Origin: Amoebophrya sp. A120
Taxonomy: Eukaryota; Protista; Dinoflagellata
Reading direction: 5' to 3'
NCBI GenBank assembly: GCA_905178155.1
Contig: CAJINV010000005.1
Location: 5,287,038 to 5,351,037, forward strand
DNA: 64,000 bases
Shown here: piece by piece, positions 2,152-61,703 of the stretch
Layout of the letters: the number at the start of each line of letters is the position of its first letter
How positions within the stretch are numbered: position 1 is the first letter of the stretch
Program-made: the position numbers and the translations under genes
Notes under the pieces: generated by a model
The model's input: only the letters and a program-made list of their open reading frames with translations
Told to the model about the DNA's origin: nothing
The model's database searches: none

Positions 2152-2806
2152 AGTCCAACAGGAGGGTGAAGTTTTCATCTTGTAAACCTCATCTTTTACT
2201 AGAGAAACAGCAAGTGCAGCATGCATTTTTCCTGTATATTAGTACAAGCCTTGAAGATTATAAATATCTGTACGCCAGGTGCTGGCGCGCATGATGAATC
2301 GGAGCCGGAGGTACGTCTAAATGCGTAGCGTTCGTTTCAAATGTATTTTTTTACAGCGGCATACTTTGCCTATTGCTATTCATTGTTGAGAGTTTATTTT
2401 ACTGCACGTTTATCATAAATTTTATTTTGTTTACATTTTGCATTTTTTGCATATAGATATACTTACATTATTTTTTGGACGTACAACAAGCCTTTGGGCA
2501 AATTTTAATTTTTATTTTACACACGCAGAAGTCGAACACGTCAGTGTTGTAGTGCTAAGAAACAAGAACTGACGCCTGGTGAGTCATAGGCTTTCTCCTT
2601 GAACTTGATAAGACTCGCTTACATTTTTAATATCTTCGTTTTCATATAATATCACTGCGACTGCCCCCCTCCAGCTCCACAGCGAAAGAAGAAGAAAACT
2701 CGAACTACCCAGACGAGCAAAATGAAACAAGACTGTGAGCAAAACCAATCCCCAAGATACTTCTAGGAAGGTTTTTTCATACTTTGACCATAATATGACT
2801 TAGTAT

Positions 2807-34378: not shown

Positions 34379-36044
34379 ATGTTTCCCTGTTTCCGCACGA
34401 CCGAATGGATGGACAAAGTTTTTTCCAAGCAAGGCTGCGAAGAGTTGCTCCAGGAATCGTCTCGCGGCTGCTCGTCCACGTTTACTTCCTCGTCCTCCTC
34501 TTCTGCTTCTAGCAGCGCGACATCAACAACTCCAGCAACCGCAGGGAATGAAATGAGCAGTACTAGTACAGCCGGCATATTAACGAACATTGGCGAGGAA
34601 AAAATAAACCAAAAAAAACCTCCGCAGCTCCTTCCACTCAGCGAAATCGACCTGACCCCTTCGTACATCAAGAATTTCCCAACCGCCAACCTTTTCCCGC
34701 AGAAAGTTCAGGAGGTTCGGGAGCAGATTCGAAGGACTTTATTTCGGCAGGTTTTGTTCAAGATACAGAACGTGGAGGTGACGTACATGAAAAAGTGCAA
34801 GCAGGACAGAAGGTTGGTGGAAGTGGTGAAGAGCAGAACTGATAGCTCTTCAACAAGAGGTGGTGTTAAAAATAGTGGTGGTCCAAATTTTATCCAGGAA
34901 AAAACACCCATCCCCATCCATTTTTTGCATGACAAATACGGGATTTTATGCATGTTTTGCATCACAAATTGGATGGGGATGGGTGTTTTTTCCTGGATAA
35001 TTTTTTTCTCGGATGTTGGCAGAAGCGAAGAACCGGAGCCACCGCGACGAGCCACCACGACGGGACTAACAGCAACATCTTCAGCATCGACCAGCCCCAC
35101 AACTTCTTCGTCTACATTCGATTTTCACCCTGAACTTCTTCTCGGCCGCATGCGCAGCTTCTTCTTTGACGCGCTGCACCGGCGGAGTTTGATCGAGAAC
35201 CTGAATTGGCTGCCGGGGTTGCCGCCTCTTCTTTCAGGGTTCTTTTCATCTGGTCCCACGTCTTCAGACGACGTTGATACAGGAAGTAGGGGAGCGGCCC
35301 AGCTGCACCAGCCTGGCAGTGCGTACAACAAAATCGAGTTTCTTCGGGAAATATCAAATGCAAAAATGTCTGGGTCTGGAAGAATGTAAGTTTGTCATGC
35401 TTGTCTGGCATGACTCGAGAATCTGTGTTGCAGAGGCACGAAAAGGCCCTCTTACCTGTCATGCACAAACGCAGTGTGCCATGCGGAATACGTAAGGCAT
35501 GGCAGCCAGAAAATTTGTCATGCATAGCTGCGTATTGCAGTGCGGCTTATCATTCACTTTTAGCATTACAAGTTTATTCCAGACCCAGACATATTTGCAA
35601 TCCATAGGAAGAGATTTGGCGAGTGGACAGGTGTGAGGAGCTGCGCGAATACCGTGTACGGTATATCCTGAGTAAAAACGTCCCCACACCAGAGTTGTCA
35701 TGCAGATTTGCAATGACAGGAACATTTGTAATGCGCATCGCCAGGAGAGGCATTTTTAGTCGTGTTTTGGAATTTGTAATGCTGTAAACAGGATGAGCAG
35801 ATGGATTTCTGATGCAGCTGGCCTTGCGAACCTGTACTACACTACGGACTGCAACTTGTGATGCGTGACCCCAAAAAGTTCTAGGTTTGTGTTGCAAAAT
35901 CCCCATCTTGGCTCTGGTGTGGGGATGTTTTTACTCAGGATACGGCACTACCGGGAGGCCCAGGGTGACGGTTTTTCCACCTTTGTGATGCCAAAACACT
36001 GGCGAGATAAGGTCGCGTTTGTGTGGTACCACTTCTGGCAATAG
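34379..36044 (+). CDS. Hypothetical protein; 4 exons
   Basis: MFPCFRTTEWMDKVFSK...; the frame stays open after removing 34891-34999, 35352-35606 and 35664-35942; ends ...KVAFVWYHFWQ*. Confidence 0.7.
34891..34999. mobile_element. Near-palindromic 109-bp introner
   Basis: 30-bp perfect TIR TATCCAGGAAAAAACACCCATCCCCATCCA with GCATGACAAA/GCATCACAAA inside; flanks AATTT/ATTTT. Confidence 0.85.
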
Positions 36045-37046: not shown

Positions 37047-38319
37047 ATGGAGTTCACCGCCGACCAAATTGTATCCACTGCAAAAGTATCGTACTCGTAA
37101 TATTGCAATGATGCATTACAAATCTTTCCCTTAGGGTAATTCAGCATTACACATTTTATTTCTCATGCTGAGGGAATTTGTAATGCATGACTTTATACGA
37201 GTGCGATACTTTTGCTTTTCATAAATTGACGAGTTTAAGGAGGCCTTCGCGCTGTTCGATCGCGATAACTCCTACGCACTGTAAATGTCCCGTACACGAC
37301 GTACAAATGCAGTCTCTGCATGACAAAATTGGGCTTTGATCCTAGTTTACTAGCATGACAAGTTCAAGTGTTACGCTCCAAATTGGTGAATGAAGTTGTG
37401 ATGCATCTCGTATATGTACGGGAAATTTGTATTGCATAACTCCGGCACAATCACGGCAGACGAGCTCGGCGTGATAATGAAGTCGCTGGGGAAAAATCCC
37501 ACCGATGACGAGCTAGAGGCGATGATAGCGGAGGTAGACGAGGACGGCAGTGGCGAGATCGAGTTCCCGGAGTTTCTGTATGGATTGCAAAAGTACCGTA
37601 CTCGTATAAATGCATTACAAATTTCCTCAGCATGAGAAAAAAAATTCGTAATGCAGATTTGCCTTGGAAACAAGATTTGTAATGCAGGACCTGCATTTAT
37701 ACGAGTGCGATACTTTTGCACAGGATATTCTGGCGTTGATGTCAAAAAAACTGCAAGCAGCAGACAGCGTGGAGGAGATGCGAGAGGCGTTTCTCGTACT
37801 GCTTAGACTGTTGTAATTTTCTTGTCATGCAAGGTGGCAGGACGCAACATGGTAGGGTTGCTTTGTCATGCGTATATTAATGCAACATACAGCATCTCAT
37901 ATATGTATATGAATCAAAAAAACAAGGTGTTCGACCGAGACAAGTCCGGTTCAGTAACAGCAGCGGAATTGAAGCACGTGATGAATAACCTCGGAGAAAT
38001 CGTGACTGACGACGAAATATCAAATGCAACAGTTTGATGAAATTGAGTCGCAATGTCGATGCTGCATGACAAAACTTCACTCAGCAATTAATTTACTTGG
38101 GTAAGTAGTTGTACCACAAAGGCAGTTTGCACTCAGTTCCTGTAAAATATAAATGCACAAATGCGAAGTGGAAAGATGCAGCGCGATTCCCATTATTCTG
38201 TTCTTGCAGTGAGTGCATATTTCGTTGAGGAGATGATCCGAGAAGCAGACGAGGACGGTGACGGGGAGTTGTCGTTCGACGATTTTCTTCAGTTCATCCG
38301 AAGAAAAGGACTGATTTGA
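37047..38319 (+). CDS. Calmodulin-like protein with 4 EF-hands; 6 exons
   Basis: Spliced protein: [74 protein letters not shown]...[23 protein letters not shown]...[15 protein letters not shown]. Introners at 37072-37223, 37273-37438, 37579-37727 and 38018-38219; GT-AG intron at 37796-37926. Confidence 0.93.
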
Positions 38320-39134
38320 CGACAAGGCAGAATGCATCCTGGAGATGAAGATGTACTCGAAACCAATCGATGAAAAATCAAAATTTAAATTGTTGATTGC
38401 ACAACTTTTGCCAATATTACTACTGAGAATAAAAATCCGTTTCTAGTACTATTGGCACGGTCGTTTCGGTGCTTTTTGGGCAAGAATATTTTCCTCTTGT
38501 TGTTGAGAATAGACAAAATTTACTTCATCAAACCAACGTTAGTTTCTCTCCCGGCGCTTGCGCTCGCGGAAAGGGAAAGTTCTGACAAAAAAGAATAAAC
38601 ATGAGGAGCTCGCGAAACAAGTGAAAGTGTTGCGCAGCTTTCTCAGCGGCGGGTTGAGTGACGTGGTCGTGGCTCACGTGTTCTTCCGGAGTGTGAGGAT
38701 AGACATGTGTCCGCGATGTTGAGTTGTTTCCTTTGGTAGTGTGTGAGTGCTCAGCAGGTTGTTCTTCAAATGTTCTTGTTCACTCGACGTCGTCCGACAG
38801 TCTTCCAGTTCCGTGTTCTTTGTCGTCCGAATGGGTTTGGTTTCCATTTCAGTACATTTGCATCTAATTCATAACTATTTCATGCATCTTTCGTGAGTCG
38901 AGTTGAGAAGCGAAGCGTTTTTTTCATCGCGCACCCGGAGCTGTTCTGTGGTACGTTCCGCGCCCGCTGCTTCCTCATTTTAAGTACACCAGTCGGAACT
39001 AAAACTCTTAGAAGCATAGAGAGGGTAGACCATTCAGTTTTGGATCTAAAAGCAAGACAACTGCAGTGCGCAAAAGTGACGTAGCGACGTATAGCATGAT
39101 CATGTAAGAGCAGCACAGCACGCATCAAAAAAAA

Positions 39135-42100
39135 ATGGACCCGGAAATTCGATCTCGTCTCCGGAATGGCGCGGTCGCCTGCCGTTTCCGCGACCCGGGG
39201 TTACCCCTCTGCATCGACGGGTTTGTGCAGTGCAAACACCTATGCATTGCAAAAGTATCGTAGTACTAGTATAAATTGCATTACAAACTGACTTAGCATA
39301 TACAAATTGAATTTGTAATGCGGATCTGCCTTTCAGAAAAAGATTTGTAATGCATAAACGCGATTAAGTAGTACGAGTGCGATACTTTTGCACTGCAGAA
39401 CACCGGAAACTGAAGTTCACGGCGAACGAGCGGTTTGCGTACGGCGGCCGTGACATCGGCGGCGCCTCCGCTTTCTCGACGAACAGCTATGGCGCATCCA
39501 GTTCGACGACGAAGATGGAAGCGGGCCTATCCTGTGCAAAAGTATCGTACTCGTACTGCAATCAAAATCATGCATTACAAGTTTTTTCGTTAAGGTAAAT
39601 CAGCATTACAAATTCTATTTCTCATGCTGAGCGAACAATTTGTCATGCATTTATACGAGTGCGATACTTTTGCAGTTCATAGGGCCTGTCGCAGCTGTTG
39701 CCGCCGACCACCTGCATGTACCAAGACCGACACGGCGACAAGAACCAGATGCCGAATATCAAATGTAAAAATGTCTGGGTCTGGAAAGTTGGAACTTGTG
39801 ATGCTAGCTTTGGAGTCTAAAAAAATCTGTATTGCATGACCAGCAAGAGGAGCCACATTTGGGCTACGCGAGGAGGGCATTTGTCATGCGGAAATGGCAT
39901 CAGGAAGCTTTCCAAAAATCTGTGATGCTGGGTCATGCATTACAAGCATCATGGGTCATGCCAGACAAGCATGACAACCCTTCCGTTCTTCCAGACCCAG
40001 ACATTTTTGCATTTGATACCGAACCCCGGTGTACCAGACGACATTTCTGACGTCGATGGAAGCTCGGACCGTCTGAACTACGGGATTCTGCTGTACTATC
40101 GGGCGAGGGAATTGCAACTGGTACAAGCAAGTAGCGTGGGAGGACAAAACGGTAGTACAAGCACTGCCCGCGCGGACAATACCATGTATCCGATTGAATT
40201 CTATGTCGAGTCCGAGCAGCTTCGGCGGCAGATCCTCGAGGTGATAACCGACCGGCAGACGAATCCGAACCCCAGGCCGCTGTCCACGCAGCTGTACGAA
40301 AGTCTGTTCGCATCGTCAGCACCAGCGAACAGCTATCCTGTGCAAAAGTTGTACTCCTGCGCAGATGGGACGGACTTGCAGTTCTCGTGCAACACTGCAT
40401 GATGACAAAAAACTTATCAATTTTAATTTATTCTCTGCAGCCTCATTTTGCATTCACAAGCTGGTGGATTTGAATGAGATTGAGAATAACAAAATCATTT
40501 AGATACCATTGTAAACATATTAACTCATGCTACTTACTTATACTTATGTTTGTACATGTTCTTCATCTTCTACGACACGCACGAAACTTTTGCCGACCTT
40601 CATAACACCTCCGCCTCTACGGCCTATGACCCCGGCCGGGAAACGGATCAGATCAAACTGCATTCCAATTACCAATACGGTGGCTCCTCCGCCTCCAGTA
40701 CGCGCAGTACCCCTGGGGGCCGGCTATCCGGAACCAGGAGCAACCACGGGCGGGCGGCCGGCACGGCGAGCGTGATGCTGGAGCGAAGCCGGAATTTGAT
40801 GGCCAAGTTCTGTTTGGCACAGAACGATATCCATTGCAAAAGTATTGTACTCGTAGTAATCGCAGTCATGCAATACAAATTTCCATCTCAAGGTAAAACA
40901 GCATTTTTACAAATTCCATTTGTCATGCTGAGCTAATAATGCGATTACTACTAGCACGATACTTTTGCAATGCATAAACGACGGTGGAGGTCCCGGAGCA
41001 GGCGGGCGGAGGCAGGCGAGATCGGAAAACGGATTTAACGGCCGCGGAGGCGCGGGAAAGAACACCAGAAACAGTAGAACGAGCAAACTGTTTCGCAGCA
41101 CGTTCGGAGGAAAGAGATTGACCCGAAGCAGCTTCGAAAGTAACGAAGGCGCGGGGTCTATCCTGTAGAAAAACTACGTCCCCACCCCAGAGTTGTAATG
41201 CAAATCTGCATGCCTCAAATGTTCCTCATGCGCATGATCCGCCTGAAAAGCTGCACTTTCTAATCGTGTTTTGGAATTTGTCATGCTAGAACCAGGATAA
41301 GAGTGCCCATTTCTGATGCGTCTGCGCGAGCTGAACACTATAAGTACACGGCAAGCCCAAACTTGTCATGCGAGAATGCTAAAAGTTCTCGATTTGTGTT
41401 GCAAAGTTGCCATCTTGACTCGGGTGGGGACGTTTTTCCTCAGGATAGGGTCCCTAAACGTCCGATCCGATTTGGAAATTTTGCAAAATTATCTGCTATC
41501 AAATGCAAATATGTCTGGGGCTGGAAGATTGCTACGTTTGTCATGCATGTCTGACATGACTCAAGAATCTGTGATGCATGAGCACGAAGCGACCCTCTTG
41601 CCTGTCGTGCAAAAACGCAGCTTGCCATGCGGAACACGCAACACATAGGAGCCCAAAAATTTGTCATGTTTGGCTCGGTATTTTTGCAGTGGAACTCTCA
41701 TTCACTTTTAGCATGATATACAAGTTTCCAGACCCAGACTACACATTTGCAATGCATACCTCCGCCACGACTGCGAAACGGCCTTGAGCAAGCTTGTTGA
41801 GAAGAGTTATCAAATGTAAAAATGTCTGGGTCTGGAAGATTGCCAGGTTTGTCATGCACGTTTTGCATGACGTGTGAGGTCTGTGATGCATGCCTTAGCA
41901 TCACAGATTCTGTGAGATCTTTACCATGCCTTTTCCGCATGAGAAACTGCCTCTAAAAGTGAACAGCTTTATTGGTAATCATGCAACACAGATTTTTGTA
42001 TGATTCAGATTTAGCATGACAAGTTGTACTCTTCCAGACCCAGACACTTTTACACTTGATAAGAGTAAGGGCAACACCAGCAGCACCGCTACTACAACTT

Positions 42101-45100
42101 TATCTCACGTCAAACTCGGCACAAAAACTACTTTCCAGAGATACGAGGCTCTGGTGGAGAATATCATCAGCGAGTATTCCGATTTGGGGCATCTAGAAAC
42201 CTTTTTCGAGGTGAATTACCCGAGCGGCATGCGGGAAGAACAATTTGGGTGGTTTTTAGTGCAAATGCAGGACGAGAATTCCCTGGTCGCGAAGGAGGTC
42301 TTTTCCTTCCTGAAACCGCCCTGGAAAACGAGTAACTCATCCAGCATTGCGTCGAACAGTAGTTCTGGTGCGACGTCGGCGCACCAGCAATACCAGTCGC
42401 AGAACACCACTTCGAGCAGTAATATGTTGGACCAGCTCCACATGTCGAGTTTTGACCAAACCGCGAATGCTCTGAACAAGTTCGGCCTCCGGCGCTGGTT
42501 GTGCGATGCGAGCCGGAATTGCATCTGTAGTGGGCATATGAATTGCAAAAGTAAATTGTACTCGTATAAACGCATTACAAATGTCCTCAGGTTGACAAAT
42601 ATAATTTGTAATGCGGATTTAGCTTGACAAAGAAATTTGCAATGCATGATTGCAATTGCTACGAGTGCGATACTTTTGCACAGCATAGGGCACGAGAATG
42701 GCGGTTCTGGTGCGACGAGTCTGAATCTTGGGGAAGATAGCTTCATCGAGGACCATATCTTGTGCACAAGTATCGTACTCGTACTGCAGTCATGCATCAC
42801 AAATCTTTTTCTTGAGGTAGATCCGCATTACAAATTATATTTTTCATGCTGAGGAAATTTGTGATGCATTTATACGAGTGCGATACTTTTGCAGTTCATA
42901 GACCATGTGGATCACAGCTTGATCGAAGTCGACGAGCGAACCCTCGATTACCCGTTCGCCAGCTACCTGGTGGCGTCGACCGGGTTTTATTGCGGCGGCA
43001 ATCGTAATTCTGCTTCAACATCATCACTGGGCAAGAACGACCCCGGACGAGCAGATGTACATCAACTTCTAGAGGAGAAGTTTCTGAATGACTTCCTCCC
43101 ACTAATAGCCAACAAGTATCGGTGCCTTTCGTTTCTGGTTTGCGCAGATGGAAGTGACAGTAGTACAACCGGCGATCATGAAGCAGGAGCAGGCGGAGAG
43201 CCAGTAGCTGCGGAACTACCTTCTTCAGCGATGAAAAACAAAACCCTAGATGATCATGCTGGCTACTCCGTGCACATTTCGCCGACTCTGAAAATCTCGA
43301 TACTAGCGATCCTTGGAAAGTTGGCACAAGTGGAAGAGAAGCAGGACCGGGGCCGAAACAAGTTCCCCCTGACTGTAGTGCTGCTGAATGGGGTTAATCA
43401 TAGTAGTCAACATTTGCTGGCAAGAACTTCTAGAAACACCAGTCCAGCACCCGCCTCTCTAGCAGCCTATCTAGAGAAGATGAGCTTACCTTCGCCAGTG
43501 TTTCGGGTGATGCACTCGGCTGGATCTGCTGCGCCGGCATCATCTTCAGCTTCTTCTGGACAACAGCAACGAAGTAAGAACTACCTCGTTCCCGATATCA
43601 AATGTGAAAATGTCTGGGTCTGGAAGATTGATGCCAGGCTTGTCATGCATATTTTGCATGATTCGTGATGCCTGTAATGCATGACCTAGCATCACAGATT
43701 TTTAAAGAGCCTTCTGATGCGTATTCCGCATGAGAAACGCCCGCTCCGCGTAGCACGAATTGAACTCCTCTTGCTGGTGATGCAATACAGATTTTTTTTA
43801 CCTTTCAAAGACAGCATCACAAGTTCCAACCCTTCCAGACCCAGACACTTTTGCAATCCATACCAGAGACCCCCATGCAACTACTCCGAACAGGCACGAA
43901 GATTGCGATCGAGATAAAGGTATGCAGTGTAAAAGTATGGTATTGGTAGTGATTGCAATACAAATTCGCTCAGGTTTGCTTTGGCAACGAGATTTGTAAT
44001 GCATAAATGCAATTCCTACGAGTACGATATTACTTTTGCACAGGATAAGCAGAAGGTGCTTGCCCGAGCTTTCCCGCCGCCTGGAAGAATTGTAGGCCGC
44101 CACCAGAAGTAAACGTAGAGTCCTCGTCTGAGGCCGCGCAGGACGTCGGGGGTGCAGCGGGTGGAGGTCAACATCTTCGTGCTGGGTCAACATCTAGTAG
44201 GGCGCATGATCTTGCAGGCAGCGGTGGAGGAGGTGCAGGCGCCAACGAGGAGGAGGAGGTGAGGCATTTCTTCGCGCCGATTGTCCTCCGGAGTGGGAAT
44301 GGAAACGACCCATCGGAAGACTTTTACGATGACAGTGAGGATGGAGACGGGTTCTCTTCTGATGATTTAAATTTTCCGGAGGACAAAATGCACCACTACC
44401 ACTGGCCGTGTTTGCAGCTTCACGGAGAAGGTTGTAATGGTGCTGCAGGAGACGCAAATAGAATTATTCCGGCTTCCGTCGACGTGTGCAATTTGTGGGC
44501 GAGTGGGATACAGAGAGTCTGCTGTCCACCCCCAACAGGCGTGTTTTCAACATCAATCAACACGTTGACCAAGAACTACATCAATCCACCTAAACCAGAA
44601 CACATCCTATCAAATGCAAATATGTCTGCGTCTGGAAGGCTGAGAGACTTGTCATGCAGGTTTTCCATTATGTGTGGGGTCAGTCATACATGACCCAGCA
44701 CGACAGAAGATTCTGTCCGACGACTTCTATCATGCTTCGTCTGCGTGAGAAACTCCCTCTCAGCTTGGTCAAAAGTGGACAGCTTCTGGTAATCATGCAA
44801 CACAGACTTTTGCACTATCCAAGATTAGCATGACAAGTTGCAACCCTCCAGACCCAGACACATTTGCAATGCATACATCCTGTTCGAAAACAACGGGTTT
44901 CAACTTCAGGACCTCCCTATCCTGTGCAAAAGTATCGTACTCGTAGTCGTATTGCAATCATGCACTACGAACCAATCCTTTTGCTGAGGTAAATCCGCAT
45001 TACAAATTTTATTTCTCATGCTGAGGAAATTTGTAATGCATTTATACGAGTGCGATACTTTATTTGCAGTTCATACTCGCACAACTCCGCCCCTGGCACG

Positions 45101-46708
45101 TTTGCATCCGCCCGCTTTTGTTGGAAAGAGCCTTCTGTGTCGGGGAAAAATTGCCGGGGGCGCAAATGCAAAATCAAGCGTCGGCTGACGATGGATTTCG
45201 AGACGTGCTTCGCAGCATCACAGACGATACAACTACAGTAGGTGTTGGAGGTGACTCTGCATCCACATCCACATCCAGCGGGGGCGCAAATGATAACAGC
45301 TGTTATAATAGTGCGTCTTCTCATTCGTTCACTACTGGTACTGCGGCAAGTAGAACTTTGACTTCTTCCCCCACTTCTATCGACAAAAGACAAGTCTTTT
45401 TCACCGCTAAACTGGAATCTTTCGCACGTAAGCGCGGCCCAAGTTACTTCGGGAAAATGGAGTTTGAAACGAGCGCGAATTTGTTTCAAGCCGACGTCAA
45501 CATCTCGGCGATTCGAAAGGATGTTGAGATGATAAACCAGGCTGGAACTACTGCTTCTGTGGCAACGCCTGCCACAGCGGCCAGTGGGCAGTATACCAAC
45601 ACTTCCAGCGCGACGGGGGGTGCGTCCACAAATTCTGCGAATCAACATACGGGTCGTACTTCTAGCAGTGCAACGTCTTCCAGAACGGCTTCTAGAGCAG
45701 CCGGACCCGGAGGTCAGCATATGTATTGCAAAAGCATCGTACTGGTAGAAATGACATCACAAATTCGTTCAGCATGGCAAATGGAATCTGTCATGCTGTT
45801 TTCCCTTGGGATGGAAGTTTGTAATGCATGATTGCGATTACTACGAGTACGATACTTTTGCACAGGATACAGCAACGTAGGCCGCAATTTGTGCAGGCGA
45901 GACACCCCAACGGGCAGCAACAGAGCAAATATCAAATGCAAATATGTCTGGGTCTGGAAACTTGTGATGCTGGGTGGCGTATCATGAGGAGGCCACAAGT
46001 GCTGGCTCAGCATGACAAGTTTCTGAGCTTCTAGGTGTTGCCTATTCTGCATGACAAACTGTGTTTCATCTGCATGAGCATGACAAGAAAATGGGTCTCT
46101 TGGGTAATGTGCATGACAGATGTAAGAGTCATGCGAAACAAGCATGACAAACTTGCACTTTTCCAGACCCAGACATATTTGCATTTGATAGCAAAAGCAA
46201 CTTTACAAATGACGAGTGGCTGAATTCGGAGCTACTCCAGCAAATTCGGTTTAAGTGTCCGCACCCGGAGTCGGGTTTGCTAACTCTGAAGCTGAACCAC
46301 GTAGATGCCGTCACGCGAAAAATCTCGACGGTCTATCAAATGCAAAAATGTCTGGGTCTGGAACAAAGCAACTTGTCATGCTAAATCTGAATCATGTAAA
46401 AATCTGTGTTGCATGATTACCAAAAGCTGTCCACTTTTGACCTAATCGAAAGGCAATGTCTCACGCAGGATAGGCATGATAGAACTGTCACAGAATCTGT
46501 CATGCTATGACCTACATACCAGACCCCATGGGTCATGGAAAACCTGCATGACAAGTCTGGCACTCTTCCAGACCCAGACACTTTTGCAGTTGATACGGTC
46601 AGTCACTACGCAATGCGACTCTTGCACTTGCGACCAGGGCTGCGCTGGGTGCCGTTTGCGGGAAATCGGGAGTTTCGGGGGATGCTGGTGCATGTGGAAT
46701 TTTTGTAA
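39135..46708 (+). CDS. Divergent phosphoinositide phospholipase C-like protein (PH/EF/X/Y/C2 order), probably non-catalytic; about 17 introners
   Basis: The frame stayed continuous across the junctions checked. X-box-like TLDYPFASYLVAST; Y-box-like RIIPASVDVCNLWASGIQRV and LFENNG; C2-like ending LLTLKLNHVD..SHYAMRLLHLRPGLRWVPF. Assignment is from remembered motifs only. Confidence 0.6.
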
Positions 46709-46726
46709 ATACTGGAGTGGAATGGT

Positions 46727-49163
46727 ATTTGGCATGAACAACTTGTTCATCGCTTTCGCTTCCTGTCTTTGCAAATCTGCATTACAACTCTGGCGTGGGT
46801 ACGTTTTTACACAGGATATGCACCCAATTGAATTCTATGTCGAGTCCGAGCAGCTTCGGCGGCAAATCCTCGAGGTGATAACCGACCGGCAGACGAATCC
46901 AAATCCCAGGCCGCTGTCCACGCAGCTCTACGAAAGTCTGTTCGCATCGTCAGCACCAGCGAACAGCTCCGCCTCTACGGCTTATGGAGACCCAGGCCGG
47001 GAAACGGATCAGATCAAACTGAATTCCAATTACCAATACGGTGGCTCCTCCGCCTCCAGTACGCGCAGTACCCCCGGGGGCCGGCTATCCGGAACCAGGA
47101 GCAACCACGGGCGGGCGGCCGGCACGGCGAGCGTGATGCTGGAGCGAAGCCGGAATTTGATGGCCAAGTTCTGTTTGGCACAGAACGACGCCGGTGGAGG
47201 TCCCGGAGCGGACGGGCGGAGGCAGGCGAGATCGGAAAACGGTTTCAACGGCCGCGGAGGCGGTGGATATCGCAAGAAAAAACTGTTTCACTGTGAACTT
47301 GTGATGCATAGAATGGAACACAGAACTATTTGTCTTGCTACACCTGCAAGACCTTGACTCTCTAGGGGTGTTTTTCCGTTGGAAGCGCGCATGGCAAATT
47401 TTCTGTGTCATGTGCAACAAACTTGTGATGCAGATCTTGCAAAATCATCACAGTGAAACAGTTTTGTCGTGGGATAGTGGAAACACCAGAAACAGTCGAA
47501 CGAGCAAACTGTTTCGCAGCACGTTCGGAGGAAAGCGATTGACCCGGAACAGCTTCGAAAGTAACGAAGGCGCGGGGGCACCCAACGTCCGATCCGATTT
47601 GGAAATTTTGCAAAATTACCTGCGCCACGACTGCGAAACGGCCTTGAGCAAGCTTGTGGAGAAGAGTAAGGGCAACACCAGCAGCAACACCGCTAGTACA
47701 ACTTCATTTCACGTCAAGCTCGGCACAAAAACTACTTTCCAGAGGTACGAGGCTCTGGTCGAGAGTATCGTCAGCGAGTATTCCGATTTGGGACATCTAG
47801 AAACCTTTTTCGAAGTGAATTACCCGAATGGCATGCGGGAAGAACAATTTGGGTGTATCAAATGTAAAAATGTCTGGGTCTGGAAGATTGCCAGGTTTGT
47901 CATGCACATTTTGCATGACTCCTGATGTCTGTGATGCATACCCTAGCATAACAGATTTTGTGAGGGCTTCCTGATGCCTATACCGCATGACAAATGCTCT
48001 TTCCGTGTAGCAAAACTTGGACTCTCTTTGCTGCTCATGCAATACAGATTTTTTTAGAGTCCGAAATCAGCATGACAAGTTTGATTCTTCCAGACCCAGG
48101 CATTTTTACAGTTGATAGGGTGGTTTTTGGTGCAAATGCAGGACGAGAATTCCCTGGTCGCGAAGGTATCAACTGTGAAAATGTCTGGGTCTGGAAGAAT
48201 TCATGTTTGTCATGCTTGTCAGGCATGACTCTTAAATCTGTCATGCACGTTACCCAAGAGCTCCGTTTTTCTGTGATGCAGAAGCGCAGTTTGTCATGCA
48301 GAATAGGCAACACCTAGGAGCTCAGAAACTTGTCATGCTGAGCCAGCAGCTGTAGCCTCATCATGAGACGCTACCCAGCATCACAAGTTCCCAGACCCAG
48401 ACACTTTTACTTTTGATAGAAGGAGGTCTTTTCCTTCCTCAAACCGCCCTGGAAAACGAGTTGTAACGCAGCCAGCATTGCGTCGAACAGTAGTTTTGGT
48501 GCGACGTCGGCGCACCAGCAATACCAGTCGCAGAACACTGCGACCAGTAGTATGTTGGACCAGCTCCACATGTCGAGTTTTGACCAAATATGACAGTGCA
48601 CAACTCGTCCCCCTCCCCCCTCATTTGTAATGCAAAATACGAAGTTCACATCTTGCCCTCAAGCACAGTCTGCGTCACAAATTTTGGAGCTTCATCAAAC
48701 AGTACTACAATCCATGTGCAGACTTGTCATGCGGAAGTCACATTTCTGGCGTTGCTTGTATTGCTGTTCATGCCAACATTCGAATGAGGGGGAGGGGGAG
48801 TTCTTGTGCACTTTCATACCAAACTGCGAACGCTCTGAACAAGTTCGGCCTCCGCCGGTGGTTGTGCGATGCGAGCCGAAATTGCATCTGTAGCGGGCAC
48901 GAGAACAATGGCGGTTCTGGTGCGACGAGTCTTAATCTTGGAGAAGACAGCTTCATCGAGGACCATGTGGACCACAGCCTGATTGAAGTCGACGAGCGAA
49001 CCCTCGATTACCCGTTCGCCAGTATGCTGTGCAAAAATGTTTGTCCCCACCGCCCCACAGTCAAGATGGCAAATCTGCAACACAAATGTCCAAGTTTTGG
49101 GAGTTCTGCATGACAAGTTTCCATCGCATTTGGCATGAACAACTTGTTCATCGCTTTCGCTTC
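46727..49163 (+). repeat. 36-bp direct repeat (46727-46762 and 49128-49163) flanking the duplicate
   Basis: ATTTGGCATGAACAACTTGTTCATCGCTTTCGCTTC occurs at both sites. Confidence 0.9.
46819..49022 (+). pseudogene. Partial duplicate of PLC-like exons (homologous to 40184-42962) with its own distinct introners
   Basis: High nucleotide identity to the upstream gene's exons; lacks both the N- and C-terminal coding parts; bounded by half-introners and a 36-bp direct repeat. Confidence 0.85.
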
Positions 49164-51081: not shown

Positions 51082-54000
51082 ATGTACCTTGCTTCGGGGG
51101 AAAACGTAGACGCCAACTCGGATACTTCCGATTCGTCCGATGTGGAGGACAGCGAGGCAATCGCGGCGAGCCGGCGACTCCAGTCCGCGCCCCCGATGCA
51201 GTTCATGTACGAGAGAAGGTCGGAGTTTGAGTCCCCCCAAAACTTCCTATCAAATGAAAATATGTCTGGGTCTGGGAGATTCTGAAACTTACTTCTCATG
51301 CACGTTTCGCATGGGCCACGATGTCTGTGATGCATGCCGTAGCTTCACAGCTTTTTCGAGGGGTTCTTGATGCCTATTGCGCATGACAAATGCCCTAACC
51401 GCGTAGCAAAAATTGCATTCCCTTTGCTATTCATGCAATACAATTTTTTTTGGAATCCAAATGCAGCATCACAAGTTGCATTCTACTTCCAGGCCCAGAC
51501 ATTTTTGCATTTGATACTTTCGAACACCCGACGAAACGAAAAACAGCAGTTCTGGCGGGACGGCGTCTTCCCCTGGAACGAGCAAGATATGAATTGCAAA
51601 AGTATCGTATTCGTATTGCAATCATGCATTACAAATCCTTTTGTTAGGGTAAATCTGCATTACAAATGTTATTTCTCATGCTGAGGAAATTTGTAATGCA
51701 TTTATACGAGTGCGATACTTTTGCAGACGATACAAGAAGAAGAGCAACAATAATTCGCCGTCGAAAAAGAACAATCTGAGTAAAACGCCGCAAAGCGGCG
51801 GACCGACCGTAGGAGGCAATGGAAGTCGAGGTATAGCAGGTGTTTGGATTTCCAACCAGGAGTGAAGTGTTATGTTACGTCTATAAAAATCTTGATGGTG
51901 TATGTTCTTGTTCTAATATCACGATGCGACAAGTGCGAATGGTCTGGTGCAACCTACTGCAGGAAATGGAAATACAACATCGCATATAATTGAGCCGTCC
52001 TTTACTTCAAACTGCATATACAGGTGGAAATAACGGCCGGAAGCTGTCTACCCAGCACGAATCAGACGATGAAGATGAATCCGAACAGGAAGAGCTTGTC
52101 CGTCACACTGCACTATCAAATGCAAAAGTGTCTCGGTCTGGAAGAATGTAACTTGTGATGCTGCGTTTGGATGTCTAACAAATTTGTGTTGCGTGAGCAG
52201 CAAAAGGATTCTAATTTTTGCTACGCGGAGGGCATTCGTCATGCGGAATAGGCATCAAGTTTAAGAATCCCTCAAAAAACCTGTGATGCTATGGCATGCA
52301 TCACAGACATCACGGCTCATGCAAACCGTGCACGACAAGCACAAATCTCAGAATCTTCCAGACCCAGACACTTTTGCATTTCATATGCACCAATGACCTA
52401 TGCAAACCCCCAAAGGACAACCCCAAAGTCGTTTTCAGGTCATCTAGAAGGTGGCATCAATGCGGCGAGACAAAAAGCAAAATCGGAATATCGGCACCCA
52501 GGAGCTCCTGCAGGTGCCACCGCGGCCCAGGGAGGAGGTTCTTCTACACCGTCTTCGAAGAAAAACAAACAAAACGCGCAGAGTACGTCGTACCAGTTGA
52601 GCTCCCCGCCAAGACAAGACCGTGGGATCGTGTCTATGCCGTCCGAAGATCATGCTGGGGTGTATTCTCTCGACGGTCATGGAACAGCCGCTATCAAGAG
52701 AAAAAGTGTTAACGTTAACGGTTTTCACAGATAGCAGTCATGCGTCGCAAATGTAGCTCAATATGCATGCTATGCATGACAAATTTAGGCACGTTTTGTG
52801 ATGCATTTCTGCATAACGAATTTCGATAACGTTAACACTTTTTCCTGTGATAGCCGCGACCATGTCGATGCCACCCGGGATGATGATGAAGATGTCGAGA
52901 GCAGGTGGAGTTGCACAAGACAAGTCAACACCGAACAAGTCAACAGCTATAACTCCTACGTCCGGGAAAAAGAAGGTGAATCAAAAGCAAAGCACTAGCC
53001 CGGTCGTGACCAAAGCAGGCGCTGGAAGTGCGACAACTTCAAGTCCCTCTAAGATGGGCAACAAGAAGAACAACAAACAGCTGCAAGGAACTTATCCTGT
53101 GCAAAAGTATCGTACTCGGATAAATGCATTACAAATTTTCTCAGCATGAGAAATAAAATTTGTAATGCTGATTTGCCTTGACAAAGAAATTTGTAATGCA
53201 AGACCTGCATTTATACGAGTACGATACTTTTGCACAGCATAGAACTACACTGACGTCGATGCAGCCCACCAGCTACAACAGTGCAACAGTAACGTACTAG
53301 TATAAATTGCATTACAAATTGGCTCAGCATTACAAATTCAATTTGTAATGCTGATTTACCTTGAAAAAGAGTTTTGTCATGCATAAATGCAATTAGTACG
53401 AGTGCGATACTTTTGCACAGGATACCAGCTACAACAGTGCATCAACCGGGGCGGGCGAGAGGAAGGAATCGGACGAGAGCGTCGGTTATCCTGTGCAAAA
53501 GTATCGTACTCGTACTAATCGCATTCATGCATTACAAATGTCTTTCTGAACTCAAATCCGCATTACAAATTTTATTTCTCATGCTGAGGCAATTTGTCAT
53601 GCGATTTATACTAGTACGATGCTTTTGCATTTCATATCGGTTCGTTTCTCCGCCAAGAAAGCCGCCAGGATTCGGAGATCATCATTCCCGGGCGGAAAAT
53701 GTATTCCGAATTTTTCCCCGGCAGGGTAAAACCTGTGACGGAAGGGCACCCAAAACACCAGCAGCAGCTGACGAGGCAGCAGCGGGCGGAGCGACGACCA
53801 AGTAGGAAAGTCCCGGGGGAACCGGGAAAATTGAGTCCGGGAGGGAAGATAAAGATTAAACCAGGGGCGCAACATATCCCACGAAAAAACTGGTTCACCG
53901 TCGTGATGATCTTGCAAGATCTGCATCACAAGTTTCTTACACATAACACAGAAAATTTGCCATGCGCGCTTCCCAAGTGAAAACACGCGGAAAAATCCAG

Positions 54001-57000
54001 TGTCTTGCAGGTGTAGCAAGACAAATCGTTCTGTGCTCCATTCTCTGCATCGCAAGTTCACACGTGAAACAGTTTTTTCGTGCGATACAACAAGTCTCCT
54101 CTACAACGTCCAGCGACGTATCAAATGTAAAAATGTCTGGGTCTGGAAGAATGCAACTTGTGATGCTGAATTTGGATTCCAAAAAAATCTGTATTGCATA
54201 AGCAGCAAAGGGAGTGTAATTTTTGCTACGCGGAGAGGGCATTTGTCATGCGGAATAGGCATCGCGAGGCCCTCAAAAAATCTGCGATGCTAGGGCATGC
54301 ATCACAGACATCAGGAGTCATGCAAAACGTGCATGACAAACCTGGCAATCTTCCAGACCCAGACATTTTTACATTTGATACGACGACACGGCGAACCAAC
54401 GAGCCACAGTGGCGACGATGGGAGGTGGTCACGACCCGTATCCTGTGCAAAAGTATCGTACTCGTAGCAATCGCAGTCATGCATTGCAAATCTCCATCCC
54501 AAGGTAAAACAGCATGACAAATTCCATTTGTCATGCCGAGCTAATTTGTATTGCAATCACTACTAGTACGATACTTTTGCAGTTCATGACCCGAACAGGA
54601 GAACAACGATGGGCGGCGCGGTGAACAAATTCCGACAGCAACTAGAGGAGCAGCTGGGTAAAGTGAACAATGACGGGGAAAGCACAACCAAGTCGAAAAA
54701 ATCGACCGACAGCTTGTCCAGGACGGTTTCCGGTGCGAAGAAAAAATCGTCCGCTTCCCGGTCCACGCGGAACAACAGCCGTATGAAAGCCTCAGAATGG
54801 AAATCCTCAAAGTGGAAATGATTTATGATGCATGAAATGCGACGCAAAAAAGACTGTATTGCAGAGCACGCAATGGAGGCCGACTATTGTCCTGCTAGGG
54901 GTGAAGAATTGGAGTGCTGCTTTGCACGACAGAAGGGCACCCCCTTGCCTTAACCTGCATGACAAACATGCTGTAAGTGCCCGGAAAATTTGTCATGCGC
55001 CGACTACAAATGCCGCTTCAACTGGAGTCGTTTATTTGCATTACAAAGTATTTCCACTATTGAGGATTTCCAACCTGAGGCTGTCATAAGCCGGTTTTCC
55101 GATAACCCGCCACCCCCACCGGCTTTCCAGCCGCCGGTAGACATGGATCCGCCACTGTTCCGGATGAACTCGATAAACCCGACGGGAGTGGTGATTGCAC
55201 CGGGGGAATTGGATTATCCAGGTATAGTTGGAAACTTTTTAACGATGACAATGTAAAATTAAATACTTTTCGGGATGATCAAATTATGTCTTACCGGAAC
55301 AAGATTTTTTCCCCTCCTCGTTCGTGTTTGTGCTGTCCTCTGCTTCTGCATGTACACAAACCTTCCTCATTACACAAAAACGCATGCAAATACTTATTTA
55401 TCACCCTCTTTACGACAACAGCCACCTCGATTCCGACGGTCCTAGTGCCCATCGACATCGCGAACCAGCCAAAGGTGCTGATGCCCATCGATAATAACGG
55501 GACCTACACCGAAGCGGTCCCCGTGCTGATGTCCTCTGATTTCGCCACCCCCACGACCCTATGCAGTGCAAAAGTATCGTATTCGTACAAATGCAAGTCC
55601 TGCATTACAAATTTTTTTCTTAAGGTAAATCAGCATTACAGATTTTATTTCTCATGCTGGGGAAATTTGTAATGCAATTTGTACTACTACGATACTTTTG
55701 CAGTTCATAGACCCCCATCAATGCAGCGGCGTCCCCGTTCATCCCCCACACGACTATCAAATGCAAAAATGTCTGGGTCTGGGAGATTCCGAGATTTGTC
55801 ATGCAGTTGTTCCAAGCTCCCCCACGTCTGAAGTGCAGGGCCTAGCATCAGAGGTTCTGCAGCTCCTTGGTGATGTGTATTCTGCATGAGAAATGCCCGC
55901 TCAGCATCGCCAGAAGTGGGCACCTTTCGCACGTTATGCATCACAGGTCTTTGTGGGATCCAAAACACGCATCACAAGTTCGAATCCTTCGAGACCCAGA
56001 CATATTTGCACTTGATAACGACTGGCACCCCGCAATTGCTGCCGTTCGCCACGCCAACCAGTAGCGGTCCGCACGCGATCAACACTGGTGGAGGGACAAG
56101 TACTACTACTCCCGCGTTTTCGCTCGTGTCAGGAGGTGGAGGAATGAATGCCGCAGCAGCGGAGTTCACGCCGCAGAGTGGTGCGAACAATAATGCGATC
56201 CTGGGCAACGTGAATGCGAGTATGTTGAGCGGGGGTAACATGGACCTGCAAATGGACGACACATCAACCGCGAACATTACCGACGGCTCGGGCTGGGTTG
56301 CAAACAATACTAGTTTCAACTCTCAGAGTAAAACTGGCTCGGCGTACAACAACAATAAAGGTGGAAAAATGATGAACAGAAGCAGTGGCGGAAAGGGGAA
56401 TTACAACAATCAGAACGCCATGGGAGACGGCGGCCAACCAGGCAGCTGGATCAACAATAACAGCAACGACAACTACGGGAATAACTATTGGGGCGGTAAT
56501 GCAGCTAATCAGGACCAGCAGAGGGGCAGCGGAAACAACCAATACACGGCCTACAAGGGCAGTGGCAATTACGAGTACGACCCCAATGTTGACCCAGGGA
56601 GTTATAGTGCGTCTTACATGGAAACAAACAACCCGCAAGGTGGTCCGTTGAACACCAAGGGGACATCAACGACAAACGGGTACAACAATAGCTACGCTGC
56701 TGGTGGTATCCCCCAGAAAAAGACCGACAGGTCATATTTGTAATGCAAAAATAAATAGATAAAAAAATCTGTATTGCATGCCCTAAACAGGATGTTATGG
56801 CCTCGCCCATGACAGATTTTCCTGTGTATTTATTTTTGCATTACAAATATGACCTGTCGGTCTTTTTCTGTGGGATAGGTGGTGGTGCAACCTCTTCCTC
56901 ACAGCAGAACGCTGGAGCAGGTGGTGGCAAGAAGGGCTACAACTATTCCGGGCAGAAGCAGCCCCGGAACAAATACGGGCATTTGGTCGTGCAAAACCAA

Positions 57001-60000
57001 GACCAGCGGCAAAACCAAAACCTCCAGCGGGATACAACGTCGAGTGCAGACCTCAATGTATCCCACGAAAAAACTGTTTCACTGTGATGATTTTGCAAGA
57101 ATCGCATCACAAGTTGTTTGTGACACATGAGGACACAGAAAATGTGTCAGGCGCGTTTTTCCCATAGGGAAAAACACGGTTGGAACTCCAATGCTCTATG
57201 CAGGTGTAGCAAGACAAATCGCTCTGCGCTCCATTTTCTGCATCACAAGTTCACAGTGAAAGAGTTTTTTCTTGCGATACAATGCCGCGCAGATGTATTC
57301 GGTTTTTTCCCCGGGCACCGGCGGTTTATCCTACGTAAAAACGTCCCCACACCATAGTCAAGATGGGAAATCTGCAACATAAATCTCCAAGTTTTGGAAG
57401 TTCTGCATGACAAGTTTCCATCTGCAGTGTAGTGCTGGTTAGCCAGGAAAGCCGCATGAGAAAGCCATTTACTCATTCTGTTTACAGCATTACAAATTCC
57501 AAAACACGACTGGAAACGCCTCTCAAGGAGATGCGCGCTACAAATGTTCCTGTCATTGCACATTTGCATGACAACTCTGGGGTCCGCCTGCGCCTTCGGT
57601 GTCCGCCTGACCTACCCCCCCTGCGTGTCAAGCCATCTGCGGCCTGGGGCAGAGGGGGGGGGGCAAAGTGTGCTGCAATTCCTTTAGCATGACAACTCTG
57701 GGGTGGGGTCGTTTTTACACAGGATACGGCTTTCACCGGAGTTACTCGGCTTTCAACAAAAACCAGAAGGACTACGTCCAGGGAGCGGATGGGCAATACT
57801 ATCCGCAAAACAACTACATGGGAGGTGGTGGGGATGATGCCGGATCTTCATGGGGAGCCGGGTACCAGCATCCCCAGGGGAATTACAACGCGAACTGGTA
57901 TGGAGGGACCACGAACAGCAGCTACAACCAATACGGGAATCCAAATCAGCCGGGGCTGCACAACAAGGGTTACGGGAAACACCAGCAACAAGGTAAAAAC
58001 TACCCTGCGAGCAACCAGCTCGCAGTACCACCGTCGGCGGCGACCAAGCCACGCGCTTCCTCCTCGAGTTCAGCGACGACAGCGCAGCTGACGAACAAGC
58101 AGCTCTCCCACGGGACCGCGGACACACCCACAAGGCGGAGAAAACACCACGCACCGAAGCTGTCAAAAGCGAAAAAGCTGGAGCGGCTGGCTACGCATTG
58201 CAAAGCAAGTATCGTACTAGTAGTAATCGCATTACAAATTTGCCCGGCATGAGAAATGAAATCTGCCATGCTGTTTTGCCCTGGGACGTAGATTTGTAAT
58301 GCATGCTTGCGATAATTACTACCTACGAGTGCGATACTTTTGCACAGGATACTAGCGCACGTGGCGTGGCACGCAGAGGCGACGAGTATGGGGTGGCTAG
58401 ATGAGGACACCATGATATGAATTGCAAATGTGTCTGGGTCTCCTGGAAGCTGGTAACTTGTCATGGTAAATCTGAAGCATACAAAAATCTGTGTTGCATG
58501 ACTGCCAAAAGCAGCTCTTCACTTTCGACCAAGGTGGGAGGGAGTTTGTTCTCATGTAGGATAGGCATGATAGGGATCTCGTCACAGAATGTCTGTCATG
58601 CTAGGTCCCGCATCCCAGACCTCATGGGTCATGGAAAACCTGCATGACAAGTTTACGCTCTTCCAGACGACCCAGACATAATTTTTGCATTTGATACATG
58701 AAATTCGTGAAGCACGACGCGTTTCACGGCAGGTTATCGGCGCTAAGCGAAAATATGAACTGCAAAAGTATCGTACTCGTATAAATGCAAGTCTTGCATC
58801 ACAAATCTTGTTCCCAAGGCAAATCAGCATTACAAATTTCATTTCTCATGCTGAGGAAACTTGTGATGCATTTATACGAGTACGATACTTTTGCACAGCA
58901 TAGAAAATCACGTGCGGCAACATGGGGTATATATGCAAGAAAAAAACTGTGTAAGTGTAACTCTGTAATGCAGAACATGCAACAGAGCTACACCTGTCAT
59001 GCCAGACAGCCATGAAGTCCTCTGCTCAAGTGTGTTTTCCCTTACAAGCCACGCATGACAGGTTTTCTCTGCCATGTAGAGCAAATTTGTGATGCTGTTT
59101 CTCAAAGAAAGTTACACTTACACACTTTTTTTCCTGGATAGTATAGGATTTTGCGACTACAACCTAACAAGGATTGTCATTCGGTTTTTTCGTTCTGTTC
59201 CTCGCCAAGGGATGAAGCGGAACGAAATACTTAAATAATACAAAGTGTAGAAGTCGTGTTTTATTTGAGCTCCTCAGTACTAGAACTTGTTCGTGATGAA
59301 GAAAACGTCTGCAATTTGAATTTTAGTCACAGTGACTGCATTAAGACAAAAGCAAGACTACTAGTACAGCACAAATTATGGATGTGTCAGGATCGAAATC
59401 GACAAAATCGAAAAACTTGTGATGCGTAAAATGTAGAGCACTGAAGGCCTGTCTTGGGGCGCAGGCATATGAGGCCGATTGTAAGCCTGTTTAGGGGTAT
59501 GCAATGTGCTGCCAGAGTAGCATGGCCGGAGCAGTCTTCTTTGTCCAAACAGCATGACAGACTGCATTTGGGTGCTCCCGAAATTTGTCATGCGCCACTT
59601 GAAGACTGAGGCTCCAACTGACATCGATTTTGTGCATCACAAATTTTTCGATTTTGTCAATTTCGATTCTGACGCTCCCATACAAATTCAAAAAATTGAA
59701 ATTGTATCAGGTCCACCGCTACTGCGTATGCTGTGCAAAAGTATCGTACTCGTATAAATGCAGGTCTTGCATTACAAATTTCTTTGTCAAGGCAAATCCG
59801 CATTACAAATTTTATTTCTCATGCTGAAAAAATTTGTAATGCATTTATACGAGTACGATACTTTTGCAGTTCATACTGCGTCTCATTTCACCAAGTGCAC
59901 CACAAAGCTTTGAGTAATGCGGACGGAATATGGATTGCAAAAATGTCTGGGTCTGGAAGATGTCATGCTGTTTTTGCATGACGCAGAAGGTCTGGAATGG

Positions 60001-61703
60001 AAGCTCTAGCATCACAGATTTCGAGAAGGTTCTGCAATGCCTAATCCGCATGACAAATCCCCCACTTTGGTGACAAGAAGTGGGCATCTTTTGCTGCCTA
60101 TGCATGACAGATTTGTCTGTGTTGTGAACTGCGCATCACAAGTTCACATCCTTCCAGACCCAGACATTTTTACATTTGATACGGAATGGGCTTCGTGTTT
60201 TCCTCCTTGCTGCCCTGTACGAAGAATATCCAGAAAATCAAGTCGATTTTTCTGAACAAGAAGGGCCAGGTATAGTAAAAATAAATCGATCTGCTGAGCA
60301 GCGGTCGTGTATCCTCTGATTTTGCCAAACGATATGAACCGTAAATGCTGTGAGTCGTGCATGAGAAACACATTTTGAAGTGCATGGAAAAATGCATGAC
60401 AAATCATAATCAAATACTATGAACACCAGATCATGATCCGGCGAGAGAAGGAGCTCAACAAATGCATCATCCCGCTGGAAACGGACGACCCGAACGCACA
60501 CACCACCGCAGAAGGCCACGAAAAATCGAAGCACAGCGCAGCGATCGTCGACCACGAAACCAAATCCTCCTCCTCTGCGGACGGAGAAGATCATAGGAAA
60601 AACGCGCCCAGCACCTCGAGCGACACCGGAAGAGCCATCCCCTGGAAGGAAAACACGAGGCTGCACATGCAGATTGACCTGGACAACTACAAAGTGAGCT
60701 TTTGGCTCGAGGAAAAATACGAAGAAGATACGGACGAATACCACGCGACGGATGTGCCGGTGCCGGAGGATGCGGTATTATTTGATGCAATACAAATGTA
60801 TTTGATGCAATACATTGTATTGCATCAAATACAAACAGACAAATGGGATAACCATGTATTTGATGCAATACAAATTTGTTCGACGGACAAGTTGAAATTT
60901 ATACATACACATCAGATCACCGTCGATTACCGTTCCTACTTCGACCTAGAACAAGACGACCTGTCCCAGGGTTTTCTCACCATTGTGCTCAAATCCGCGG
61001 TATGCATTGCAAAAGCCTCGTACTAGTCTAAATTGCATCACAAATTTTGGCAAGAAGGTTAGTGGAATTTGTAATGCTGTTTTCCCTTATGAAAAACATT
61101 TGTCATGCATATTTGCAATTAGTACGAGTGCGATACTTTTGCAGTTCATACGCGGGCGCTGGTGCGAGATTTGTGTCGTACGACAACCTCACCCCCAAGC
61201 CGGAGTTGCCCGCCGACCCCCAGCACGACATCGAGGAGCTGACGACCCCGACGGTGTCCTCGAACTTGGGCAACAAAACGCCATCCGGGGCAGCGGGTGC
61301 AGAAAACAAGAAGAAGAAAACAAGACGGAACAAGAAGAAAAACGCGGCTGCGAATTCCGCCGGAAACTCACCAACGAACGGGGCGGTGAACAAGGATGAT
61401 GAGGACGAAAACACGAAACCGACGGATCACGCAACGTTTCTCGGCGAGGTCAGCGGGGAGGTGATTGAACAGTTGGAGGACAGATTATTGACGCAGTCGA
61501 AATCAACAAGGAAGAAGAAAACGACTTCTGCTGGTGGTGGTGGTCCAAAAACCGCTGGTGCTCCTGCAGCTGCCGGCTCAACCACGTCGTCCGTGTCAGT
61601 AAGCAAGTCTTCGCCAAGCAAAAAGCCCAGTGAGGCAGCTACCTTGTTGGACCAATCTCCCGGGAGTGGCAGCACTGCGGATTCTAGGACGGCGGACGCT
61701 TGA
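51082..61703 (+). CDS. Large low-complexity (N/G/Q/S/P-rich) hypothetical protein with a globular C-terminal domain; about 24 introners
   Basis: Exon fragments join in frame where checked. C-terminal domain FHGRLSALSENHVRQHGVHRYCVSF..ADGMGFVFSSLLPCTKNIQKIKSIFLNKKGQI resembles a motif I recall from dinoflagellate hypothetical proteins. Could be more than one gene. Confidence 0.6.
56707..56877. mobile_element. Single-copy introner with a ~50-bp TIR
   Basis: TATCCCCCAGAAAAAGACCGACAGGTCATATTTGTAATGCAAAAATAAATA and its near-exact complement; flanked by GGTGG/GGTGG. Confidence 0.85.
57584..57686. mobile_element. 103-bp GC-rich insert nested in family B introner 57327-57726
   Basis: Flanked by an 18-bp duplication GCATGACAACTCTGGGGT; absent from other family B copies. 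Confidence 0.8.

Follow-up and report, generated by a model that had tools for sequence, protein, structure and literature searches.

In a 64,000-nt stretch of the genome of Amoebophrya sp. A120 (hereafter the window), a block of exons lies just behind the stop codon of its own homolog, enclosed by two exact copies of a 36-bp sequence and ending on either side in half of an introner of the same family (family B). Our preferred explanation, held with moderate confidence, is an insertion that arose through template switching or the repair of a break and duplicated its target, its source being either an allele that had diverged from the adjacent gene or a paralog that has since been lost. Amoebophrya sp. 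A120 is a parasitic dinoflagellate whose introners carry inverted and short direct repeats, according to the available text of PMC7789003. The original prediction saw in the block the integration of a DNA circle, and what it missed is a diverged functional source with a wholly different set of introners. The features are listed in Table 1.

Table 1. Features of the exon block and of the adjacent host gene, in window coordinates.
Feature	Position	Strand	Details
Host gene	39135-46708	+	About 1,300 codons, 17 introners, one open frame after element removal
Host span homologous to the block	40186-42962	+	7 introners, none at block sites or breakpoints
Annotated gene model P0001 (472 aa)	46722-49113	+	Predicted
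Target repeat, copy 1	46727-46762	+	Exact, maximal 36-bp match
Right 59 nt of a family-B introner	46760-46818	+	Profile positions 221-279, 43.7 bits
Exon block	46819-49022	+	Five pieces, 1,231 nt spliced, 410 open codons
Whole introner, block only	47268-47476		5-bp repeat GTGGA
Whole introner, block only	47856-48117		5-bp repeat GGGTG
Whole introner, block only	48167-48418		5-bp repeat GAAGG
Whole introner, block only	48589-48818		5-bp repeat CCAAA
Left ~105 nt of a family-B introner	49023 to about 49125-49128	+	Profile positions 1-~97
Target repeat, copy 2	49128-49163	+	Exact, maximal 36-bp match

The 36-bp duplication that brackets the exons, already recognized in the original prediction, consists of exact copies at both ends of the block with 2,365 bp between them. 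The host stop codon (46706-46708) lies 18 nt before the first copy; the insertion had rightly been placed behind the stop codon of the homolog, at a distance of about 19 bp. Read from the left, the block opens with a family-B right end and closes with a family-B left end, and between the two lie five exon pieces and four whole introners. What had been described as 2.2 kb of PLC exons is thus about 1.23 kb of exon, the remainder being the four whole introners. The two halves belong to one subfamily, have the same orientation and do not overlap. They were placed with a profile built from the 7 family-B copies of the window, on which the alignment of the left half past position ~97 is of low confidence. 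The right piece is family B, as predicted, with its start at 46760-46763 in place of 46771, and contig loose ends fall at 46759-46760. The middle of the element is indeed missing, with profile positions about 98-220 (~123 of 279, or 44% of the element) absent between the halves. The 5-bp flanks of the two halves, TGCAC and GCCAG, are unlike each other; identical 5-bp flanks occur in 16 of the 21 elements of the host gene and the block that were set by hand. Microhomology at the junctions, gauged against family-B copies in place of the donor, is 3-4 nt on the left, between the half-element and the end of the 36-bp repeat, and 0-1 nt on the right, between the half-element and the start of the repeat. 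The P0001 model, as read from the sequence, would start in the flank, continue in the same frame across the repeat and the right half-element, and stop inside the left half. The RNA runs X10 and X11 gave 0 reads at 46600-46780, a count that carries no weight on its expression.

The 36-mer has only two copies within the 64-kb window, and it holds an 8-bp perfect inverted repeat (hairpin of -5.9 kcal/mol, z -3.0, with 3 of 200 shuffles as stable). It is found on 1 contig in each of two read-derived contig sets (X1 and X2), and it is therefore target sequence rather than the sequence of a repeat family or of an element. The same count of one contig per set rules out the 36-mer as the middle of an introner, despite a weak, low-confidence extension of the profile.

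As the original prediction pointed out, the halves face outward, profile positions 221-279 coming before positions 1-~97, unlike the ends of a composite transposon. Composite and Pack-type TIR transposons hold a gene fragment between two element ends. Here the ends are reversed, with introner termini facing the exons and no terminal inverted repeat at the block boundary, and the duplication is 36 bp, not the 5 bp of the family. Capture by a transposase, in a composite or reversed-ends transposition, would suit elements that resemble TIR DNA transposons with 5-bp duplications, but the boundaries of the block lie inside the elements and not at their termini. Retroposition of an unspliced RNA could draw on the non-LTR retrotransposons that A120 has according to the available text of PMC7789003, but the four introners are kept and no poly(A) tail is found at the block. 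The anatomy of the junctions largely refutes both routes, and we leave them a very slight chance.

An automatic scan of the window gave 61 rows for 60 elements, which have ends of the TAT...ATA type and are flanked by 5-bp repeats; with 25 elements added by hand there are 85 introners in 14 clusters, and family B has 7 whole copies. The family of the half-elements has the marks of introners, being repeated and having terminal inverted repeats and short direct repeats. Deleting each of 17 + 4 elements, which belong to several families, together with one 5-bp repeat restores open frames. The left parts of the family-B copies in the window are 69-87% identical to one another, and among the 7 copies compared the two halves have different nearest ones, those at 57327 and 31424 for the left half and that at 35664 for the right half. 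Other outward-facing pairs of half-introners were not seen within the 64-kb window. The window holds several further elements and repeats. The family-B copy at 57327-57726 has a GC-rich internal insert of ~120 nt, whose flanks are a short duplication of the element's own right end. A left and a right half of a 150-nt introner family (8685-8766 and 9530-9618) face inward with ~760 nt between them, probably a single element split by an insertion, with matching 5-bp flanks (CCGCG). The introners at 53093-53241 and 59727-59868 match at 98% over 142 nt, where most copies are 60-90% alike, and this points to recent mobility. Single-copy palindromic stretches at 34890-35000, 52687-52857, 56707-56877 and 60779-60831 are possibly rarer introner families. 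The EF-hand gene at 37048-38320, which we take to be calmodulin-like (one exon has a Pfam EF-hand match with E 6.7e-10), is split by three introners despite its conservation. Finally, 2800-3875 and 3890-4789 form a degenerate tandem duplication with a period of about 1.09 kb, 77-85% identical and with no introners inside.

The homolog of the block is the adjacent gene, with 3.8 kb between the homologous span and the insertion. The block exons are collinear with this span and 95.1% identical to it (1156 matches, 60 mismatches and 21 gap columns), and the differences are spread evenly (6-14 in every 150 columns). Each of the seven alignment gaps is 3 nt long. Over 404 aligned codons there are 44 synonymous and 19 non-synonymous differences (p 3e-16), with dS 0.18, dN 0.021 and dN/dS 0.115. 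Low dN/dS, even divergence and an open frame indicate that the donor was one functional, diverged copy. None of the 13 introner sites (7 host introners, and 4 whole and 2 half block introners) is common to both copies, the nearest pair being 57 columns apart, and no introner is found at either breakpoint position of the host gene. With disjoint sites and no introners at the breakpoints, the adjacent gene was not the template; from this comparison of sequences, the donor would have gained its own introner set after diverging. Differences are about twice as dense near introner sites (18 in 165 columns against 64 in 1072, p 0.027), an excess that comes partly from mismatched 5-bp repeats.

The annotated protein P0002 is the 3' 869 aa of the host gene. 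The spliced host frame reaches back about 430 codons beyond the annotated start (39135-42260), and the public P0002 model looks 5'-truncated or split. Protein searches with the window exons found annotated Amoebophrya sp. A120 proteins at 100% identity; altogether they gave two A120 models and three distant relatives (32-38% identity), and nothing closer. A search of the host gene against Pfam and PDB sequences gave no significant match. The structural model of the host product has a mean pLDDT of 40 from a 4-sequence alignment and a best Foldseek E of 0.0095. The top matches of its predicted C-terminal C2 fold are PLC enzymes (Z 10.1-10.7; for PLC-beta3, Z 10.7, rmsd 3.4, 110 aligned), tied with other C2 domains. 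Of the PLC label in the original prediction, a predicted C2 fold and its PLC top matches stand, set against the lack of a Pfam or PDB sequence match and the ties with other C2 domains. The host gene is PLC-like at most; an X-Y catalytic barrel with catalytic histidines, as a phosphoinositide phospholipase C would have, could be judged only from this model of mean pLDDT 40 and from the Pfam and PDB sequence searches that gave no match.

In a 115.5-Mb genome the chance of landing less than 5 kb from the homolog is ~1e-4, and the donor was therefore probably close to the locus. The simplest nearby donor would be an allele on a diverged homologous chromosome, the alternative being a tandem paralog that has since been lost. 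The dS is large for alleles, and k-mer data in the available text of PMC7018713 suggest little gene flow between Amoebophrya ribotypes; for these reasons a lost paralog stays a fair alternative as the donor. Meiosis-associated spores are reported in Amoebophrya, in the accessible part of bioRxiv 10.1101/2025.04.10.648098. A title-level literature search, with few subscription papers, returned no matching title on introgression in Amoebophrya. To our knowledge, mating has not been observed in an Amoebophrya parasite. No donor was found in the window, in the sample contigs, or in protein and metagenome searches; against metagenome contigs, the block protein had 0 relatives among 60 pattern matches and a repeat pattern had 0 matches.

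For the course of the insertion we propose that a diverged functional copy carried family-B introners at both breakpoints, and that these introners may have acted as break or switch points. The copy would have been near the locus, most simply as the allele of the homologous chromosome, the cell being a hybrid or heterozygous, or else as the tandem paralog. One repair event, by template switching or by end-joining at a staggered break and with no need for a circle, would have copied or captured a linear internal piece of 2,365 bp and duplicated 36 bp of the target. The remainder of the donor would not have been inherited, the fragment alone being kept. The junctions have short microhomologies (3-4 and 0-1 nt) and target sequence is duplicated at the insertion site, as in templated insertions. 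Insertions with such junctions are ascribed to NHEJ, MMEJ or FoSTeS/MMBIR in the available text of PMC5120786, and the FoSTeS/MMBIR or MMEJ insertions described there likewise have short microhomologies, junction repeats and one duplicated insertion site. Those insertions are large, human and of same-genome source, whereas, unlike what that text presents, the block has 2.4 kb, comes from a donor copy diverged by a dS of 18% whose remainder is unseen, and lies beside its homolog. A single repair event explains everything except that both ends lie in family-B elements of the same orientation. This feature, which the original prediction had brought up, is confirmed. Both ends fall in non-overlapping halves of the same family and orientation in 0.6% (window), 0.9% (genic) or 1.9% (host gene) of random fragments, simulated in 400,000 draws per region over the 85 elements, for a case that was picked for showing the pattern. 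A chance of 1-2% for random linear ends hints that the pairing of two elements played a part.

An alternative in which such elements recombine is close to the original prediction. Two family-B introners in direct repeat would have recombined (or one of them would have undergone a one-ended, aberrant transposition) to give a circle; this would have been opened within the hybrid element, with a loss of ~120 nt, before a staggered break took it up. In a variant, the two elements pair and a linear loop is released. The frequency of 0.6-1.9% for non-overlapping halves of one subfamily and orientation speaks for it, the different nearest copies of the two halves weakly fit two donor elements, and duplications mediated by circles are already known (PMC7450558, as far as its available text goes). 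The diagnostic of a circle in that text is a permuted order with both opening ends adjacent in the donor. In the block, the order of unique sequence is unpermuted, and the loss of ~123 of 279 positions leaves the outer ends non-adjacent. The label "circularly permuted" goes too far for collinear exons and an element with lost positions, only the repeat halves being permuted. In addition, the hybrid element would be just 11% of the circle, and the left parts of family B show 69-87% identity, which makes a poor recombination substrate. A free circle also gives no reason for landing beside the homolog, and the block is as abundant as a sequence that each genome has once, whereas a free circle would be expected at a low level. 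With a homolog that lacks introners at the breakpoints and a donor not found, these points count against circle integration as originally proposed. By a rough estimate, the likelihoods of the circle (11% times the chance of a ~120-nt loss) and of random linear ends are level; a circle is possible, and we consider it unlikely. Segmental duplications through circular DNA (cattle KIT, tilapia vasa) likewise have outward pieces at their ends and microhomology scars, but unlike the cases in the available text of PMC7450558 the block has no permuted unique sequence, its opening ends are not adjacent and no donor was found for it. Exon shuffling, also part of the original prediction, finds no support either, the exons having come to lie after the stop codon of the very gene to which they are homologous; the title-level search, with few subscription papers, found no matching title on introner-mediated circles or exon shuffling.

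Support for the block as assembled comes from the contig sets X1-X3, which derive from one sample, contain 52-77% of the words of the region and may be the assembly's own source; the contig tables give the best 32 of 78,209 pieces. A further set, X9 (share 0.06), has short repeat pieces only. A contig over a block exon and a block introner has a depth of 62.8, where 61.9 is predicted if host and block are each present once, which fits a block present at one copy per genome. Among the best 32 pieces, contigs start at the predicted branch points 49128 (X1), 49134 (X3) and 42933 (X1 and X2), the first two being the first and seventh base of the 36-bp repeat, and the predicted starts 46733, 42925 and 40193 are absent. 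No contig in X1 or X2 crosses either block junction, and one X2 contig follows the path of an empty site, passing from 23 nt of upstream flank through the repeat straight into the downstream flank. An empty site in another strain was looked for in metagenome contigs, with 0 matches. Graphs of 31 letters cannot phase a 36-bp repeat, and this X2 path is ambiguous and may come from graph pruning. The last exon of the host is uncovered in X1 and X2 too, which indicates that short pieces between repeats get lost from contigs, and the gap at 46600-46703 carries no evidential weight. A misassembly, in which scaffolding or gap filling misplaced a real orphan fragment and duplicated the 36 bp, would agree with block ends in repeats, where contigs break, with the uncrossed junctions and the empty-site contig, and with the Illumina scaffolds that the published A120 assembly keeps after gap closing. 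The starts at 49128 and 49134, on the other hand, are predicted by two entries and two exits of the repeat, the published scaffolds were checked for chimeras with Nanopore reads (both points on the published assembly from the available text of PMC7789003), and a diverged orphan fragment would still need an origin. We regard misassembly as very unlikely.

We assign a similarly low probability to an old tandem duplication that covered the entire gene, after which one copy gained its own introners and lost its 5' and 3' parts by two deletions, the 36-mers then being paralogous 3' UTRs. It would account for proximity, orientation and independent introner gain without a foreign allele, and the window does hold an older tandem duplication of ~1.09 kb at 2800-4789. 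However, the 36-mers are identical, an outcome with p of about 0.002 if they diverged like synonymous sites and 0.16 if they diverged like the exons overall, and two separate deletions would have to stop exactly on either side of the same 36 bp. Remnants of other exons are not seen in the window or among the best 32 of 78,209 contig pieces, nor is a second full copy of the gene in the sample. In X1 and X2 the contigs over the host exons beyond the block span run without a break, show 0 differences and have the depth of a single copy (in X1, 36-44 against 47 over the downstream flank).

Templated insertions, circle-mediated duplications and differences in introner presence are each already known. 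The Amoebophrya introners of PMC7789003 and PMC12130899 are likewise short, with terminal inverted and short direct repeats and many per gene; the available text of both describes intron gain, not half-elements that bound a duplicated exon block. In Micromonas, introner presence/absence polymorphism likewise gives position differences between the homologs of different lineages, but unlike what the accessible text of PMC4540971 describes, both states here adjoin in one genome with the same introner families. At title level, and with few subscription papers, no paper on introner-bounded exon insertions was found in the literature.

A more specific reading takes the block as an allele fragment of another Amoebophrya lineage, released as a circle or loop by recombination between two introners in a hybrid cell and then captured next to its homolog. 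We hold it to be quite unlikely; if true, the block would record outcrossing between lineages whose introner sets do not overlap, and for the first time exons would be seen to have been mobilised by introners, yielding a new in-frame gene (the predicted 472-aa model). Two copies 5% apart with 0 of 13 sites in common likely gained their introns independently after the split, which would date the introner burst whatever the route of insertion. The main value of the block lies here, in what is likely the relic of an allele from another lineage by which the burst can be dated, and in the side-by-side record of two copies with disjoint introner sets, possibly of two lineages. With an allele as donor, the block would testify in the genome to sex or hybridisation, and lineages could be told apart by their introner maps. 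If the piece came free through the pairing of introners, genes rich in introners would tend to be excised and duplicated.
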